A DNA stretch of 64,000 nucleotides from Mustelus asterias (taxonomy: Eukaryota): positions 558,001 through 622,000 of the forward strand of contig NW_027590140.1 of the NCBI RefSeq assembly GCF_964213995.1. Direction: 5' to 3'. Shown here one piece after another: positions 33,288 to 63,307 of the stretch. The position numbers and the translations under genes are program-made. Positions within the stretch are counted from its first letter, which is position 1. Each line of letters starts with the position of its first letter. The notes beneath the pieces are model-generated. The model ran no database searches. It was given only the letters and a program-made list of their open reading frames with translations, and had not been told where the DNA came from.

Positions 33288-33696
33288 AAACGTGAACATG
33301 GTGAGCATTACAGACCAAAAGAGAAAATGCTGGAAAATCTCAGCAGGGATGACAGCATCTGTAAGAAGAGAAAAGAGCTGACGTTTCGAGTCCAGATGAC
33401 CCTTTATCAAAGCTGGTACCCGTAATCCTGGAAGTTACATGCGGGGTGGAATTTGAGTTAATATCCACGTGGGGCAAGTCAGAGACGAAGACAGTCACTG
33501 AGGAAGGAAATGTGGCTGTGGAAGCCATTCTTGGTAAATACCTTGTCCAACGCTGAGAGAAATGGAAAGCAGTGAAGGTGGATGGCGGGAGTGGGGCGGG
33601 AGGGCGGAAGGGGGGCGGTGGTTGTTGCGGGGAGAGACACATACGGAAATATCTGATCTTGGTGAGTACAAGAATCAATAACCCTCGCAATGTTCA

Positions 33697-33735
33697 GGTT
33701 TCTGGGCAGCTCTCTCCGTGTTCTGTATCACTGTG
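33697..33735 (-). other. Duplicate (distal) 23-RSS of the supporting V-delta
   Basis: CACAGTG 33735-33729, 23 bp ATACAGAACACGGAGAGAGCTGC, CCAGAAACC 33705-33697. A 61-bp tandem copy of the proximal RSS. Confidence 0.85.
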
Positions 33736-33757
33736 TCTGTAATCCTCACTATGTTCA

Positions 33758-33796
33758 GGTTTCTGTACAGCTCTCTCCGTGTTCTGTGTCACTGTG
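33758..33796 (-). other. Proximal 23-RSS of the supporting V-delta
   Basis: CACAGTG 33796-33790, 23 bp ACACAGAACACGGAGAGAGCTGT, ACAGAAACC 33766-33758. Confidence 0.92.
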
Positions 33797-34102
33797 CTGT
33801 GCGCTCACTCAATGCACAGTAATAAACAGCGGAGTCGCTCAGTTGTACTTTGAAGATCTCTAGCCGGCTGATTTTGACTGAAGAATGGCCATAAATGGAA
33901 ATTCTGCCCCCGGGAGTGTTTTCTTTATTCTCCGCTCCTGATGTGTGAGTCTGAAGCAGGTACTTCGGAGCCTGTCCTGGGGACTGACGATACCAGTGTA
34001 CTGTGTACTGACAGATTCCTGAATATTCACAGATTAGAGTAACCGTGTCACCGACAGTAGAGGTTTGGAGAAGTGAACTTGGTGACACAGATGAGCTGGA
34101 AC
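33797..34102 (-). CDS. NAR-TCR supporting TCR-delta V segment (leaderless, intact)
   Basis: CCTGCAG acceptor, phase 1: (G)SSSSVSPSSLLQTSTVGDTVTLICEYSGICQYTVHWYRQSPGQAPKYLL..LSDSAVYYCALSER. Canonical C/W/C plus an extra CDR1 Cys. Lies directly downstream of the NAR-type J. Confidence 0.9.
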
Positions 34103-34211
34103 CTGCAGGATAGAAATAAAATGAATTGTTTTTTTTTAGCCACTGTTTAGCCCGGAAAAACTTGGCAATCTGGCCTGTCTGTTGCGGCACTTTATTTCAT
34201 TGAATTTGGGG

Positions 34212-34517
34212 TTGGCACAATGGCACTTCTGTCTCACAGTGCCAGGGAACCAGGTTCTATTCCGGCCTCGGGTCACTGTCTGCCTCGAGTTTGCACGTTC
34301 TCCCCGCGTCCGCGTGGGTTTCCTGCGGGTCCTCCGGTTTCCTCCCACATCTAAAAATGTGCAGGTTAGGTTGATTGGGCATGCTAAATTGACCACAGTC
34401 TTCCAGCGGCATTAGCACAGTAAATGTCTGGGGTTATGGGAATAGGGCCTCTGTTGGGATGCGGTCGATAGAGATTCGATTGGCCGAATGGTCTTCTGTC
34501 CTGTCGGGATTCTGTGA
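34212..34517 (+). mobile_element. Older SINE copy in the J-to-supporting-V intron
   Basis: Diverged head TGGCACAATGG..CGGGTCACTGTCTG and tail GGCCGAATGGTCTTC. Confidence 0.75.
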
Positions 34518-35170
34518 ATTTGTTTCAAATTGCATTGATTATTGAAAGTAGACAAGCGTAGCAGATCTTCAGGTTTTTTTTCCACAGATAACAACACTCA
34601 CCTGAAGTTCACTGCGGAAGGGGCAGTGCTGGGAGAAGCTTTAAATTAACGTTCAAACGGTAATTGAGGAGGAAAAATACTTCTGGGACAGGGCAAGATT
34701 CCACTGACAAGGGGACGAAAGAAGGGCGAATGCGGACATTGGCAGCACCTTCAAATTACTGACATTATTGACAAAATTATGGGTTTTTTGCGGAATATGA
34801 CACTATTTTTATTAAATATCTGCTAATAAATATATTGGTGAAATATCAAACCAGAAAAATAAATCATAAATGTTCACTCTTCTCGCTGAATCAATTGCTG
34901 TCTAGATTTGATTGCCCAAAGGAAAATGAGGCTTTTTAATGTCCCTGCGCATATCAAGGTTCAGCACAGGGCAGCGATATTGGTCCACACCGATTAATCC
35001 GAACGGACAATATATATCTCTGGGTCAAAGACCGACCATTGGCCGTAGTTCAGCACTGCAAGGTAACTCCTGTCTGCCGTTGGGCTATTTGTCTGTTTCA
35101 ATCAATCAATTCAATCGTTTTACTTCTATTAGAAATATTTGCAAGTTGATTTCATATTATTTCTATATCT

Positions 35171-36135
35171 GGGCGGCACGGTAGCACAGTGGTTAGCACT
35201 GCTGCTTCACAGCTTCAGGGTCCCGGGTTCGATTCCCGGCTCGGGTCACTGTCTGTGTGGAGTTTGCACATTCTCCTCGTGTCTGCGTGGGTTTCCTCCG
35301 GGTGCTCCGGTTTCCTCCCACAGTCCAAAGATGTGTGGGTTAGGTTGATTGGCCAGGTTAAAAATAAAATTGCCCCTTAGAGTCCTGAGATGCGTGGATT
35401 AGCGGGTAAATATGTGGGGGTAGGGCCTGGGTGGGATTGTGGTCGGTGCAGACTCGATGGGCCGAATGGCCTCCTTCTGCACTGTAGGGTTTCTATGATT
35501 CTATGAGTTGTTTTCTGTCTGTTGTGGTTTCGAACCGTCATTGGAACTTGTCCTAATTTCTCTCAGTTGTCGGTTGGGTTCAGCGAGTTCAATTTCCGCA
35601 GTGGTTTTATTGTTACTCACTGGGAACTGCGTTCAGGGTATATGCGAATTTAAATCCATTTCATCCATTGGCTGACTGTTCTCTGTCCTTTCCGAACAGT
35701 CTAACATTTACATTCTACACTTTCCACTTACCACGAATAAGCCACTCGGCCCAGCTGGTCGACGCTTGTTCTTGTACATCACTTCTCCTTGTGAACACGT
35801 GCGGCACGGTAGCACAGTGGTTAACGTTGCTGCTTCACAGCGCCAGGAACCTGGGTTCGCTTCCCGGCTTGGGACACTGTCTGTGTGGAGTTTGCACATT
35901 CTCCTCGTGTCTGCTTGGGTTCCCTCCGGGCGCTCCGGTTTCATCCCAAAGGTGTACGGGTTAGATTGATTGGCCATGCTAAAAATTGCCCCTTAGTGTC
36001 CTGCGATGCGTAGGTTAGAGGGATTAACGGGTAAATATTTAGGGATATGGGGGTAGGGTCTGGGTGGGATTGTGGTCCGTGCAGACTCGATGGGCCAAAT
36101 GGCCTGTTTCTGCACTGTAGGGTTTCTTTCTTTCT
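35171..36135 (+). mobile_element. Two HE1-like SINEs (35171-35505; 35801-36135)
   Basis: Both match the 9309-type consensus. Confidence 0.88.
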
Positions 36136-36764
36136 AAGAAATAACCATTTACAGCCTGACAGTGTGTCTATCTATTCCTCTCACCCGCTCATATTTTTCA
36201 AGCTGTACCATAAATTCATCGCGCCGTTTCTCCAAACAAACTCTCATGTGTCTCCGTGTAAATCTACCCAAATGTCTGTTCAGGTAGTAATTTCATGGGT
36301 AAATGTCTCCTTGTTCTGGAGACACAGGTTCGAATGCTGCCTCGACAGCTGGTAGAATTTGACTTCAATAAATAAACAAACCTGGAATTAAGAACTTACC
36401 GTTGACCATGAAACAATCATCGATTGTTGGAAAATTCCATCTGGTTTCCTTCCTTTAGGGAAGGAAATCTGCCGTCCTTACTTGGTCTGGCCCACACATA
36501 GCTGCAGAGACACGGCCATCTGTTTGACTCTCAACTACTCTCCGAAATGGTCTAGCCAGCCATTGATTTAAAGGGTGACTAATAAATGCTGGCCAGCGAG
36601 CGAAACCATGCCACACAAATGAATTCAATAAACCTCTCCCACCGGAGGATCAGTTTCTGCACATGTACCTCCTTGAAACAATAACATAATGTTCAATGTT
36701 TTTATACTATTCTTTTCATGTCTTCCTAGCCTCCGGGAGACAAACGGCAATGCTTTTCCAAGCT

Positions 36765-37118
36765 TTCATAGAACATAGATCATAGAACAGCACAGAACAG
36801 GCCCTTCGGCCCACGATGTTGTGCCGAGCTTTGTCTGAAACCCAGATCAAGCTATTTCTTCCCTCGCATCCCGAAGTACTCCATGTGCCTATCCAATAGC
36901 TTCTTAAATATTCCTAAAGTTTCTGACTCCACTATCCCTGCAGGCAGTCCATTCCACACCCCAACCACTCTCTGAGTAAAAAACCTACCTCGGACATCCT
37001 TCCTATATCTCCCACCATGAACCCTATAGTTATGCCCCCTAGTTACCGCTCCATTCACCCGAGGAAATAGTCTTTGAACGTTCACTCTATCTATCCCCTT
37101 CATCATCTTATAAACCTC
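36765..37118 (-). mobile_element. Young CR1 3' fragment
   Basis: ORF 36852..37106 is nearly identical to the C-terminus of ORF 41976..43376. Confidence 0.9.
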
Positions 37119-38483
37119 ATAGACATTATTGATTACTTATTTTCTCCGGAATGCAAGAAATTCAATCTGATAATAAGATACATAAGAAATAGACACATGG
37201 TAGACCAATCCAACTTGAGGGCCCGCTGTACAATTCAAGAAGTTTAGTTCTGATCGTCTACCTTAATGCTAACCTATTCCCAAATCCATTCATACCATTA
37301 GTATTCAAAAATAAAATCTATGGAACGGTTCAGCACTCTCAGCCTCGACACAACCCAATCCCTGAAGGATTGATTATGCTTCAATGAGCACAATGCCATG
37401 TTTTTGAAATCGAGAAAAAATAATGCAAACAGATTGGTCCACCGTTGTCTTTCAATATGTGTAAGAGAATGCAATTCACACCTTTTACAATTCTGTCAAA
37501 GCAGAAATGATTGTTGATAGGAAGAAAATAAAAATCCGATAGAATATAATTATTTTAGTCACTGATTGTGCAAGAATGAAATGCCAGATTCAACTATAAA
37601 ATGATCTCTTGAAGCTATTTGCGTCATGTTCCCCTTTCCCTGACGCGGCAGGTAAAGGACCAGCCGCTGCAATATTGGGTTATCTCTCCCGGTATCTTAT
37701 CCACATTTCCTGGAGCAGAGAGAAATCCTGCGCCCGGTGACTCCGCTCTCTTCCAGTGGAGAGCAGGGAGCAGAGTTCGGAGTGTCTACAATATGCTTTT
37801 TATTCATTCATGAGACATGGGCAGCATCGCTGGCTGGCTGCCCATCCCTAGTTACCCAGGGGCAGTTGAGAGTCAACCACATTGCTGTGGCTCTGCAGTC
37901 ACATGCGCGCCGGACCAGGTAATCACGACAGATTTCCTTCCCTGAAACACATTAGTGAAGCAGATGGGTTTTTCGAACAACCGAGAATGGTTTCATGATC
38001 TTCAGTAGATTCTTGATTCCAGATACTTATATTGAATTGAAATTCCACCACCTGCCCTCGCGGGATTCACAGAACTTTAGCTGTGTTTTTGAATGAATAG
38101 TCCAGCGATAATTCCACTTCGCCACCGCCTCCCCTAATGTGCGCTCATTGAAAGCAGTATGGAGAGTGAGAGTGCAGGCTGTTATGAAGATCACCCGATA
38201 CCTCCCTTAAACCAATAATGGTCCAGGAGGGGTCAGCTGAATCTTCTTCCCCGTAGGATACTTGTCATTTGGGGTCTCACACTGCTTCAATCCGTTCTCA
38301 CAGCCAAACCCGAGTTCAGTTTATTACCATGTTCCCAAGTCTAAATCTGCAATTGAGAATCTTCCTCTGGAACCCACCCTGCTTTTGAAGCAGAGCATTG
38401 AAGTAATACTAAAAACGAATATAAACTGACGGTGAACACTAACCTGGACAGTCTGTAACACGGAGTGATTTGGAGTCACTTAC

Positions 38484-38536
38484 CGGCTGTGACAGTCACC
38501 ACAGTCCCAGACCCATCTGCAAATCTCCATTCTCCC
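38484..38536 (-). CDS. NAR-TCR J segment
   Basis: GEWRFADGSGTVVTVTA + G, then a GTAAGT donor (phase 1, in frame with the supporting-V acceptor at 34102). IgNAR-like xGxGT motif. Confidence 0.9.
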
Positions 38537-38575
38537 CACAGTGACACCGCTCTCAGTCAGCCCAATACAAGAATG
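38537..38575 (+). other. 23-RSS of the NAR-TCR J
   Basis: CACAGTG 38537-38543, 23 bp ACACCGCTCTCAGTCAGCCCAAT, ACAAGAATG 38567-38575. Confidence 0.85.
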
Positions 38576-38903
38576 ACTGACACCTCAAACTAACAGCCAG
38601 CATTACCGGACACTCAGCGTTTCTCAATTATTCACGGGACTGGGGTCAATAATGAACATAGATTGCATCAAAAAAATAATTGAATCACACTGTCCTTTGT
38701 GATTCTCTGAGCTCCTGGGAAAATAGAACAAGGGCAGAGATGCAAGGTTATTATTAACGGAGAAAAACCTTAAAGAATGAGAACTGATCGGAGGAAATTA
38801 CACTGAAATTAAACCAGGTTGAATTGGGAATAACATCATCCTGACAGCTTAAGTTACCTAAGCTGGGAATTGCTGGGAGTTACTGGGGGTTTTTTTGTCC
38901 TTG

Positions 38904-38931
38904 GGTATTTGTCCTTCTCCATTCCATTGTG
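38904..38931 (-). other. 12-RSS at the 3' end of the NAR-TCR V
   Basis: CACAATG 38931-38925, 12 bp GAATGGAGAAGG, ACAAATACC 38912-38904. Confidence 0.88.
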
Positions 38932-39222
38932 GTGTCCTCTGTGTGTAGTACCAGTACTGAGCTTTACAGTAATAGGTGGCTGTGTCTTCAACTCTCATGT
39001 CCTGAATTTCCAGTGAAAATTTCTTTTCTCCTTTTGTCACCGACACAACAAATCTCCCTCCGCTGGAGATCTGCTCCCGCTCTGTCCCTTTCTGGGTTTG
39101 TCTGAAAAAATGACCAGTTTCTAAATCATAAACTCCATGTAAAACACAGGTGATGGTGAGAGACTGACACTCCTTCCTGGTCACGGCTGTCGGACTCTGT
39201 GTCACTGACTGACTGAACGATC
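38932..39222 (-). CDS. NAR-TCR V segment (IgNAR-like V domain), intact, extended 3' end
   Basis: TTTCCAG acceptor, then QSVTQSPTAVTRKECQSLTITCVLHGVYDLETGHFFRQTQKGTEREQISSGGRFVVSVTKGEKKFSLEIQDMRVEDTATYYCKAQYWYYTQRT. Shows the IgNAR-type CDR2 deletion (E.IS.GGR), YYCKA, and an extra FR1 Cys. Confidence 0.92.
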
Positions 39223-39363
39223 CTGGAAATTAAACACAGAGAGTTTAAGAGACCATCGGAGCTGAACCACACAACTATAGTGTGACAATGTCTGTAAGGG
39301 GGGTGGACTGAAGCAGCTTTATATTCAATCCACACAATGTAGTTTAATGTGATCGGTACTCAC

Positions 39364-39406
39364 GCGATAAATAGACACACACACTGAAAACAAGGAGGAC
39401 TCTCAT
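39364..39406 (-). CDS. Leader exon of the NAR-TCR V
   Basis: ATG at 39406, MRVLLVFSVCVYLS + C, GTGAGT donor. 43 nt, phase 1, in frame with the V exon. Confidence 0.9.
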
Positions 39407-39430
39407 TGCTCTGCTGCCTGGAGCTGATGG

Positions 39431-39436
39431 TTTATA
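39431..39436 (-). promoter_or_regulatory. Candidate TATA box of the NAR-TCR V promoter
   Basis: TATAAA about 25-30 bp upstream of the leader ATG. Confidence 0.5.
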
Positions 39437-40394
39437 TGGCGGGGAGCTGGAGACTGCAGTGCTGGACTGCTCTGGTAGACCGGATCGCAGAGATGAATTG
39501 AAATACTTCAGATCCGAACATCGGCAAATTAGGCCACGCCCACAGTTTAAAATAAAAGTCAAGGATTGTAATGGGGAATCCAGTTCTGAACTTTCAGTCG
39601 AAATTCCAGGCAGCGAGAGCCCAAACGCTCATCAGGTGACCAACAGTTGTGCTTGAAATGCTCTACTTGGTCTCGAGTACATTATTTATGTTTTTTAATT
39701 CAGGCGATGCCAGCAGAAATTTCCAATCTCTAATTTATCTTCATAAGGTGGAGGTGAACTGCCTTCTTGAACGGTTGCAGTCTCTGTCGTGTATGTACAC
39801 CCACAGCGCGATTAGGGAGGGAATTCTAGAATATTTACAGAGACCGAGGGACAGTGAAGGAACGGAGGAAATGCCCGAGTCTGGATAATGGCAGTGTTCG
39901 CGTTTCGTTCTAGATTGCAGCTGTTTTGTGTTTGAAATGTAGCGCCTAAGGAGGCTTAGTGAGTTCCCGTAGATTAGAATATCATGAAAATGGTATACAC
40001 GGCTGCCACTGTGCATCGGTGGTGGAGGGAGTGAATACTTGTAGAAGAGCTACCAGTCAAACAGGGCTGCTATGGCCTGGATGAGACTTCCTGCAAATTG
40101 GAATCTCATTGTGCGACGTCGGAAACACCTCCTTTGTCTCAGAAAGAAGGGCAACTTCACTGGAGGCGCATCCTGCTAATTTTACTTTTATTCAGACCAG
40201 CAAACTCAGTCTACACTCCTTATGAAAGAGAGGCAAATAACGGCTGGTCAGATCAACTAGACAGGCCCACTACACAGATATTTACTTGAAGGCAGCAGGA
40301 TCTTTAGGGGGATTCTAACAGTTCGATTGTAGCTCGCCTTCTGGAACAGCTCAAAGTCGGAGAGGAATTCAATTCTGAGAGAACAGAAGTATCC

Positions 40395-51839: not shown

Positions 51840-52143
51840 ATCCTCAATCCGCAGAAATAGATGGCGCTGTCTTTAGTCTCCACAGCAGAAATTGACAAAG
51901 GGAAAACCTGATATTGACTGAAATGACGAGCATCGAATTTTCCTTTGGCAAACTCGGCATCCTTGCGTCTGGTGTTATCCCGGAACAATATGAACTGGAG
52001 TGGCTGGTTCGGGTAGAGCCGGTACCAGTAGCGATCCGGATCAACAGAACTGGAGTTGTAATTACAGCTCAATTCCAGATTAGTTCCCTCAGCTATCTTC
52101 AACTCATGTTGACTCTGTGTTATCGAACTCCCTTGGATAGTAC
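51840..52143 (-). CDS. TCR V segment, open frame, possibly functional
   Basis: TTTGCAG acceptor, then SSITQSQHELKIAEGTNLELSCNYNSSSVDPDRYWYRLYPNQPLQFILFRD..KDSAIYFCGLR. RSS: CACGGTG 51839-51833, 22 bp, ACAAAAACC 51810-51802. The in-phase leader at 52283-52250 (MYSFLCCKKSI) is poorly hydrophobic. Confidence 0.85.
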
Positions 52144-52794
52144 CTGCAAAATAATATGCAAAACATTCAGGTAACCCCCTTATTGATGACAAGAGTCCCC
52201 CTCTCTCCTCTTTCAAAATGAGGAAAAACAATCACAAACTAACTATCACCTATGGATTTTTTACAACAGAGGAAGGAATACATTTCAGTATTTACATAGT
52301 ATAGGGGGCAACAAGTATCAACAAATGTTTCACATGTTCCAATTTACCGAATAGAAATGACGCCACGAGAAATTTAACTGGTGCCATCTCTAAAGTTTTT
52401 CCACGATATTCAAGAATCTAATGTGCAAATCTTTCCGACTACGTGCCCACAATGGCTTTACTTTCCTTGAGACACGATCACTCCAATGATGCCCTGAAAC
52501 GCTGTTCTGAACAAACAGCAGAAATGACTCAGTGAAACACAGAAACAATAAACAGGAAGTGAGCCCCAGTCCGTTTGAATCGCAAAGATCACGCATGTGC
52601 GTGCTTACGTCATTGTCTAGTGCAGTATCAGTTGACACAGAAAGCAGAGTAATATTAATTGACACATAATCCAGTGTTTTATATATAAAGGCAAAGTACC
52701 TTGCTGCAATAATTAAGGCAGACCTTGTGTAATATAAACAACATCAATGTCTAATACATTTTTAGCGGGAACATATTAGTTTAAGGTACTCAAG

Positions 52795-62812: not shown

Positions 62813-62846
62813 ATGTTTCTGACCATTCTGGCGGCGCTTTTGAACA
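62813..62846 (+). other. Leader exon of the 63021 V with mutated splice donor
   Basis: MFLTILAALLN + A (34 nt, phase 1), followed by GGAAGT instead of GTAAGT. Confidence 0.7.
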
Positions 62847-63020
62847 GGAAGTACCGGATAACGTTCATCAAGCCAGACAAACATATTAATATACATAGAT
62901 GGCATTTTAATGAACCATCAGGAATATCTATGTGAGGCGTAGATGGGAGGTTCCACAAACTGTCACAGGTACAAGAAAATTTACAATAACTCTTGATATT
63001 TAATTCCTCTATCTTTACAG

Positions 63021-63307
63021 GTGGACTATGCGCAGATCCAGTTGCGCAGTCACCGGTGAAAATAACCGCATCAGAAGGGGGTTCGGTGCAGTTAGATTGT
63101 AACTATACAGGCAAGGGTATGAGCTACATGCAATGGTATCAGCAGAAACCGGCACAGGCACTGAGATGGATTATTACCACAATATTAGTACTGAAGGAAA
63201 ATAAAGTTTCAGGACGATATCTGGCGGCTTCTGACAAGTCTAATGGTTACCTCAAAATCAGCGGCCTCATTCTGGAGGACGTGGCGGTCTATTACTGTGC
63301 AGTGAGG
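63021..63307 (+). CDS. TCR V segment (alpha-like), open frame
   Basis: TTTACAG acceptor, then DPVAQSPVKITASEGGSVQLDCNYTGKGMSYMQWYQQKPAQALRWII..LEDVAVYYCAVR. RSS: CACAGCG 63308-63314, 23 bp, ACAAAAAAA 63338-63346. Confidence 0.88.

Follow-up and report, generated by a model that had tools for sequence, protein, structure and literature searches.

How does a T-cell receptor (TCR) variable domain that is described as the product of separate V, D, and J segments come to be encoded in a locus with no free D segment? The question is raised by a 64,000-nt stretch of Mustelus asterias DNA (the window; assembly GCF_964213995.1, contig NW_027590140.1, positions 558,001 to 622,000), which contains on its minus strand a cassette of the new antigen receptor TCR (NAR-TCR) type. 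In the doubly rearranging NAR-TCR delta chain of cartilaginous fish, as far as the available portions of the sources go, a leader, a VNAR-like V, and a J are spliced to a leaderless supporting V-delta, both V domains carry an extra cysteine, and the tryptophan of the WYRK motif is missing (PMC1845163, PMC3457774, PMC5931798). The cassette in the window agrees with this description. However, the described NAR-TCR undergoes a separate VDJ rearrangement, whereas in the window the V and a D would be fused beforehand, leaving a single somatic junction. We consider it likely that this intact cassette, whose N-terminal V carries a D remnant together with the 3′ recombination signal sequence (RSS) of the D, stems from one old germline join made by RAG, and that duplication followed and selection has preserved it since.

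Joined and split cassettes

A search of the genome assembly (G000) yielded 90 matches from 150 scored, out of 524 candidates, and 57 NAR-TCR entries at 56 places (L009 and L082 are one place) as well as three V segments resembling those of the immunoglobulin new antigen receptor (IgNAR) were examined. Two layouts were found. In split cassettes, the V with its 22-RSS is separated by about 400 nt from a D that lies between two 12-RSSs, and a further stretch of about 378 nt leads to the J with its 23-RSS. The D segments listed, 15 in total, have lengths of 13–19 nt, most of them with a TGGG or TGGA core. The joined layout, to which the window belongs, was found in 33 entries, i.e. 32 of the 56 places: the V end is followed by 12 additional nt, a 12-RSS, and about 395 nt up to the J, and a free D is absent. 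The initial annotation had regarded the V–12-RSS/23-RSS–J arrangement as the NAR-TCR layout, which is wrong in view of the separate VDJ rearrangement in the literature and of the 15 split cassettes with a free D.

The origin of the RSS and of the spacer behind the V could be assigned by comparison with the split cassettes. When the spacer of the window, with the RSSs removed, was aligned to the D-J spacers of ten split cassettes, all ten matched, with scores of 80–120 and about 65% identity over 205–254 nt (shuffled sequences reach at most 45). No alignment to the V-D spacers of the same cassettes was obtained (scores 21–28). In addition, the uncommon nonamer core AAATAC is common to the 12-RSS of the window and the D 3′ RSS of the split cassettes. 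The spacer and the 12-RSS are thus homologous to the D-J spacer and the D 3′ RSS, respectively; therefore, the exon comprises a V plus a D, and the RSS is that of the D, so that the “V” of the window is, by homology, a germline V-D fusion. The breakpoints of the joint lie at the coding ends, and the core of the D remnant is of the TGGGAC type in most members of the joined clade.

An independent V-D join of a similar kind was found at L059, which has the unjoined twins L060 and L061. The same read-through tail as in the joined cassette occurs in the protein P0001. Among 56 longer gene models, one (P0006) has the joined tail; these models splice across V ends, and the distribution of the tail is thus not bounded by this count. 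A protein search at near-equal length gave only four matches. Models labelled Mustelus may represent the very loci studied here, and they were therefore not treated as independent evidence.

Identity of the cassette

The assignment of the cassette to the NAR-TCR family, proposed in the initial annotation, was upheld, and the leader, NAR V, 12-RSS, J with its 23-RSS, and leaderless supporting V with its own 23-RSS that it had listed are all present and intact (Table 1). In a PDB search with the NAR V, the top 27 matches were all VNAR or VNAR-containing structures (best E value 2.5e-19). Against gene models with two V domains from sharks and rays, the identity was 54–84%. The matches to VNAR in the PDB and the recurrence of the layout, which was seen dozens of times across the genome, rule out that it is a product of chance. 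The hallmarks given for NAR-TCR in the available portion of PMC1845163 are a leader, a cysteine in the a-b loop, the missing WYRK tryptophan, and a leaderless supporting V with a cysteine in the first complementarity-determining region (CDR1). Both cysteines are present in the window; among 56 homologous models, the cysteine in framework region 1 (FR1) was found in 53 and that in CDR1 in 46 (counts by regular expression, the latter with misses included). The phenylalanine at the position of the FR2 tryptophan (GHFFRQ), which had been remarked upon earlier, is real, but it is not special, as a missing tryptophan at this position is itself a family hallmark.

Three features of IgNAR, i.e. an FR2 tryptophan, multiple Ds, and constant domains of its own, were not found in the cassette, and its J precedes a TCR-type V. 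The IgNAR-like Vs of the assembly have kept the FR2 tryptophan and form the outgroup in the V tree (see below). The cassette is thus, from its V identity, cysteine pattern, supporting V, and tree position inside the split family, a member of the NAR-TCR family that departs from it in a single feature, the free D.

The anatomy was derived from a minus-strand reading of positions 33400–39800 and an RSS scan. A TATAAA box or a one-letter variant is present at the identical position in 15 of the 15 cassettes compared. The intron between leader and V has 141 nt, and the phase of the J donor (phase 1) equals that of the AG acceptor at 34102. A heptamer at 38943 with a 24-nt spacer was also considered as a functional RSS. 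It makes use of the same nonamer as the 12-RSS. As this heptamer is degenerate and differs between clade members, it was not counted. The supporting Vs of the window (33697–33796) and of L043, L053, and L060 are followed by two to four tandem repeats of 61 nt, each resembling a 23-RSS.

Table 1. Features of the NAR-TCR cassette in the window, and RAG-type joints elsewhere in the assembly
Feature	Location	Strand	Remarks
TATA box TATAAA	39431..39436	-	30 nt 5′ of ATG; position conserved in paralogs
Leader exon	39364..39406	-	43 nt; phase-1 donor
V exon, overall	38932..39222	-	open; contains KECQS and GHFFRQ
NAR-TCR V proper, VNAR-like	38944..39222	-	3′ limit from comparison with split paralogs L044/L045
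Extra FR1 Cys of NAR V	about 39167-39169	-	
Fused extension	38932..38943	-	12 nt; about 4 junction nt plus trimmed D remnant
12-RSS	38904..38931	-	heptamer CACAATG, nonamer ACAAATACC; homologous to D 3′ RSS of split cassettes
Non-coding spacer	38576..38903	-	homologous to D-J spacer of split cassettes
J 23-RSS	38537..38575	-	consensus heptamer; nonamer with 3 mismatches (clade-conserved)
NAR-TCR J	38484..38536	-	GEWRFADGSGTVVTVTA; phase-1 GT donor
Intron, J to supporting V	34103..38483	-	4381 nt
Leaderless supporting V-delta exon	33797..34102	-	open; contains GICQY
Extra CDR1 Cys of supporting V	about 34011-34013	-	
Supporting-V 23-RSS	33758..33796	-	
Second tandem 23-RSS	33697..33735	-	61-nt repeat; similar RSS arrays 3′ of supporting Vs in L043, L053, L060
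V-D join	L059		
D-J joins	L041, L063, L069		
Inversion, D onto supporting V	L046 (L091; C122:398922)		5.7 kb; coding joint and perfect signal joint both kept
Inversion with NAR-V × D-delta signal joint	L058 (L090; C110:113690)		signal joint perfect
Supporting-V–D-delta join	L042 (= L101)		
Split NAR cassettes with one common supporting-V-to-D-delta junction	L064, L065, L066 (= L100, L095, L096)		three contigs
Supporting-V–D-delta join	L099		
Conventional V–D-delta join	L092		on C71 itself
Probable D-D join	L097		

Origin and retention of the fusion

Several observations weigh against an old RAG-made join that was kept for use in T cells. The junction opens with CAC(A), i.e. the letters of an RSS heptamer, and taken alone it is compatible with an imprecise or microhomology-driven deletion; germline joints of immunoglobulin (Ig) genes had no RSS residue according to the available portion of Lee et al. 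A split cassette that is sister to the joined clade was not found among the entries examined (spacers only about 60% identical). Damage was found in 17 of the 33 joined entries. The V tree alone places the joined entries on one side in just 14% of the bootstrap trees. The assembly search found no C-delta-like exon on the window's own contig, and joined Ig heavy chain (IgH) genes of the horn shark were reported, in the part of the source available, as not detectably expressed.

The first of these points leads to the best-surviving alternative, namely that an ordinary deletion without RAG, by microhomology or unequal crossover, took away the V RSS together with the V-D spacer and the 5′ RSS of the D. 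Functionally, this would make no difference. Besides the heptamer-like start of the extension, the word TGGG, which is found where the V-RSS spacer begins and again in D cores, would fit such a deletion. However, both breakpoints are within a few nt of RAG cut sites, and RAG joints are evident elsewhere at the same locus, perfect signal joints among them. We therefore regard a deletion by other means as unlikely, and germline RAG activity as the probable agent.

Even if RAG made the join, the cassette might be inherited in intact form and yet have lost its expression, with no role beyond that of a template for gene conversion like the joined VD pseudogenes of the chicken. The damage to about half of the joined entries could be read in this way, and two mosaics hint at exchange: P0001 has the joined tail on a CDR1 of the split family, and L033 has the supporting V of the window behind a NAR V that is 91% identical. 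Gene conversion or unequal crossover is suggested by both. Nevertheless, a silent template appears quite improbable, because the cassette has kept its TATA box and leader, its splice sites and three RSSs, the J frame, and the supporting V without damage, and because purifying selection on the joined cassette is supported by a dN/dS ratio of about 0.3. Specifically, comparison of the window family with the second intact joined family resulted in values of 0.26–0.44 for every one of the 15 pairs (Fisher p about 0.003–0.01 on rounded counts). An ATG, an acceptor, an open V, a CAC heptamer, and a J with donor have been kept by 16 of the 33 joined entries, and eight of the nine intact ones with a supporting V in view have an intact supporting V, while L034 has lost its first cysteine.

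In the initial annotation, selection had been argued from the cassette being the only intact unit among ten conventional V segments, most of them disabled. Ten such segments are indeed present, and eight of them are damaged by stops, frameshifts, or lost cysteines. But the argument fails, as the conventional TCR alpha/delta V at 51840–52387 (minus strand) is also intact: its leader and GT/AG sites are in order, its frame is open, and its 22-spacer RSS is good. The case for selection is instead backed by the dN/dS values. The V at 62814–63307 (plus strand) is open and has a good RSS; its leader donor is GG instead of GT, and no in-phase GT donor was found.

Alternatively, the D-less V(12)–J(23) unit, similar to kappa genes, could be ancestral and the D-bearing cassettes derived from it. 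Such a unit would be 12/23-compatible without a D, and the joined clade is deep, with spacers about 70% identical within it (about 71%, i.e. about 29% different, between the two intact joined families). Yet this order of events is largely refuted and can be given hardly any weight. On the V tree rooted with the IgNAR-like Vs, the joined entries are nested within the split ones, and a single joined clade is not rejected (approximately unbiased test, p-AU 1). The read-through of split-type V RSSs is present in models of Chiloscyllium, Hemiscyllium, Pristis, and Cetorhinus, the NAR V of the nurse shark is described as VDJ (PMC1845163, portion available), and the extension contains a D-like core.

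The spacer tree places 26 joined entries on one side of a branch with a support of 100/100. The 3′-truncated L079 and L080 are absent from both trees. The spacer tree also omits entries that have no D 3′ RSS or no matched J (L050, L051, L055, L052, L056, L057, L067, L068, L070, L085) as well as the D-J, inverted, and IgNAR entries, and L049 was included with an over-long extract.

The many unplaced near-duplicate contigs might bring to mind an artefact of assembly or a rearrangement in somatic T cells, and singleton joints in the assembly may be somatic. For the window cassette, however, both are refuted, as the same junction was found at 32 places whose flanks diverge and in contigs from six independent studies. 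These contigs bridge the V-D junction in six of the eight public runs searched (X1, X5, X8, X10, X16, X20), which come from organisms A, B, D, E, and F and one unlabelled source. It follows that the fusion is inherited and that different species have it in common. The bridging contig of X1 has one difference in 199 nt, and X1 may be the source of the assembly. Split-type V ends appear as loose ends in runs X7, X8, X10, X16, and X20.

Near-identical copies of the window cassette are located on C71 (99.7% over 8.5 kb) and C229 (98.7%); some places among such copies are probably alleles or haplotigs. Intact joined cassettes are often found in a convergent pair with a decayed joined cassette 8–11 kb away (L035/L047, L083, L084, L085, L087). 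These decayed partners exhibit a C-to-G change in the heptamer and a J frameshift; no partner of the window copy is in view.

Proposed assembly of the receptor chain

A D that is already fused would change the number of steps in a developing T cell. By the usual rules of V(D)J recombination, a single deletional RAG join between the 12-RSS and the 23-RSS of the J, over 395 nt, would complete the VNAR-like domain, while two would be required otherwise. The leader and the V exon together have 334 nt, and the J reads from its second base. A blunt VD-J join would be one base out of frame, and therefore junction processing (trimming or N-fill) would still be required and one variable junction would be left. 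The first half of CDR3 (KAQYWYYTQRT) would be fixed.

A second rearrangement would connect the supporting V, through its 23-RSS, to D-delta and J-delta. The D-delta arrangement seen is 12-D-23. With a first query taken from P0048, a record that resembles a transcript and combines a NAR V, a supporting V, a J, and a C, 19 C-delta-like exons were found in the assembly (82–100% identical to the query), three of them on C71 (7138102, 11043420, and 12270565) and 16 on unplaced contigs. The C71 twin of the window cassette lies 3′ of all three C-delta exons on C71 and in the opposite orientation, and therefore the supporting V would probably rearrange by inversion. At L099, a supporting V that by eye resembles those of decayed joined-clade cassettes is joined to D-delta. 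Many split NAR-TCR cassettes are about 50 kb upstream of a C-delta-like exon, and TCR-delta looks multiplied into cluster-like units, of which some copies may be haplotigs.

Splicing of the leader–VDJ, supporting VDJ, and C-delta parts would then result in a three-domain delta chain, in which the two extra cysteines may link the V domains by a disulfide bond. The expected product would be a semi-invariant subset of NAR-TCRs.

Further joints at the TCR-delta locus

Beyond the old joined clade, at least 11 further RAG-type joints were found at TCR-delta in the assembly (Table 1), two of them with perfect signal joints. A heptamer-to-heptamer signal-joint pattern matched the assembly only twice, at L046 and L058, and the control gave no match. 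Matches to one D-delta 3′ RSS amounted to 11, seven of which are in the rearranged state, a fraction for which stray reads from lymphocytes could hardly account. Only the junction of L064–L066 is multi-copy; the others are singletons and may be germline or somatic. L064–L066 are 16–23 kb away from a diverged C-delta (82–84%), and their supporting V was probably pre-joined in the germ line, which recalls the marsupial V-mu-j.

A broader proposal, which we put forward only tentatively, is that RAG acted repeatedly in the germ line of this shark lineage at TCR-delta, and not at Ig loci alone. It would have fixed the old V-D-joined clade for a semi-invariant, innate-like single-domain TCR as well as the additional joints (V-D, D-J, D-D, supporting-V-to-D-delta, and inversions with perfect signal joints), inherited across a multiplied locus of NAR-TCR/C-delta units. 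If the signal joints were confirmed to be inherited, they would prove directly and physically that RAG has cut in the germ line.

Comparison with other germline-joined receptor genes

Germline-joined receptor genes are well known for shark antibodies, but have rarely been described for TCRs. The partly joined IgH genes (VD-J, VD-DJ) and the joined Ig light chain genes of cartilaginous fish share with the window a VD-only join, few junction nt, stable inheritance, and split paralogs alongside (PMC2193156, PMC5192425), and germline joining is called peculiar to Ig genes of these fish in the available portion of PMC5192425. In contrast, the join in the window is part of a TCR cassette without its own constant region. 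Marsupial TCR-mu is also a three-domain TCR chain with a germline-joined V (PMC7615758, PMC3457774). However, V-mu-j encodes the supporting domain and is fully joined, probably via retrotransposition (PMC7615758), whereas in the window the antigen-binding domain is half-joined and the leader intron and an RSS have been kept. Rearranged TCR sequence has likewise been reported in the germline DNA of the channel catfish, for TCR-beta/alpha, but these are full V(D)J joins ascribed to transposition from T cells (PMC6170632), in contrast to an in-place partial join fixed across species. These statements again refer to the portions of the sources available.

A joined NAR-TCR was not described in the literature surveyed; the primary NAR-TCR papers (Criscitiello 2006, Deiss 2019, Ott 2021) are outside that survey and may contain it. 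One file of the elephant-shark supplement gave no match, and other supplements may bear on novelty. A half-joined NAR-TCR that is conserved and under selection would mean that RAG activity in the germ line also reaches a TCR locus. Such a receptor would also bear on the ligand question of NAR-TCR: a fixed CDR1 and a half-fixed CDR3 common across species could be followed with PCR or in sequenced repertoires, and could serve to probe for ligands.

Two further variants were seen among the NAR-like Vs. The split NAR Vs of L050, L051, and L055 lack the FR1 cysteine (KEY), and their D-J region is seemingly replaced by a repeat-like insertion. L077 (C71:2929533) is a NAR-like V that runs without an RSS into the J motif FGRGTMLTV, i.e. 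a non-rearranging VJ exon, and is a candidate for the UrIg2 of PMC12227049.

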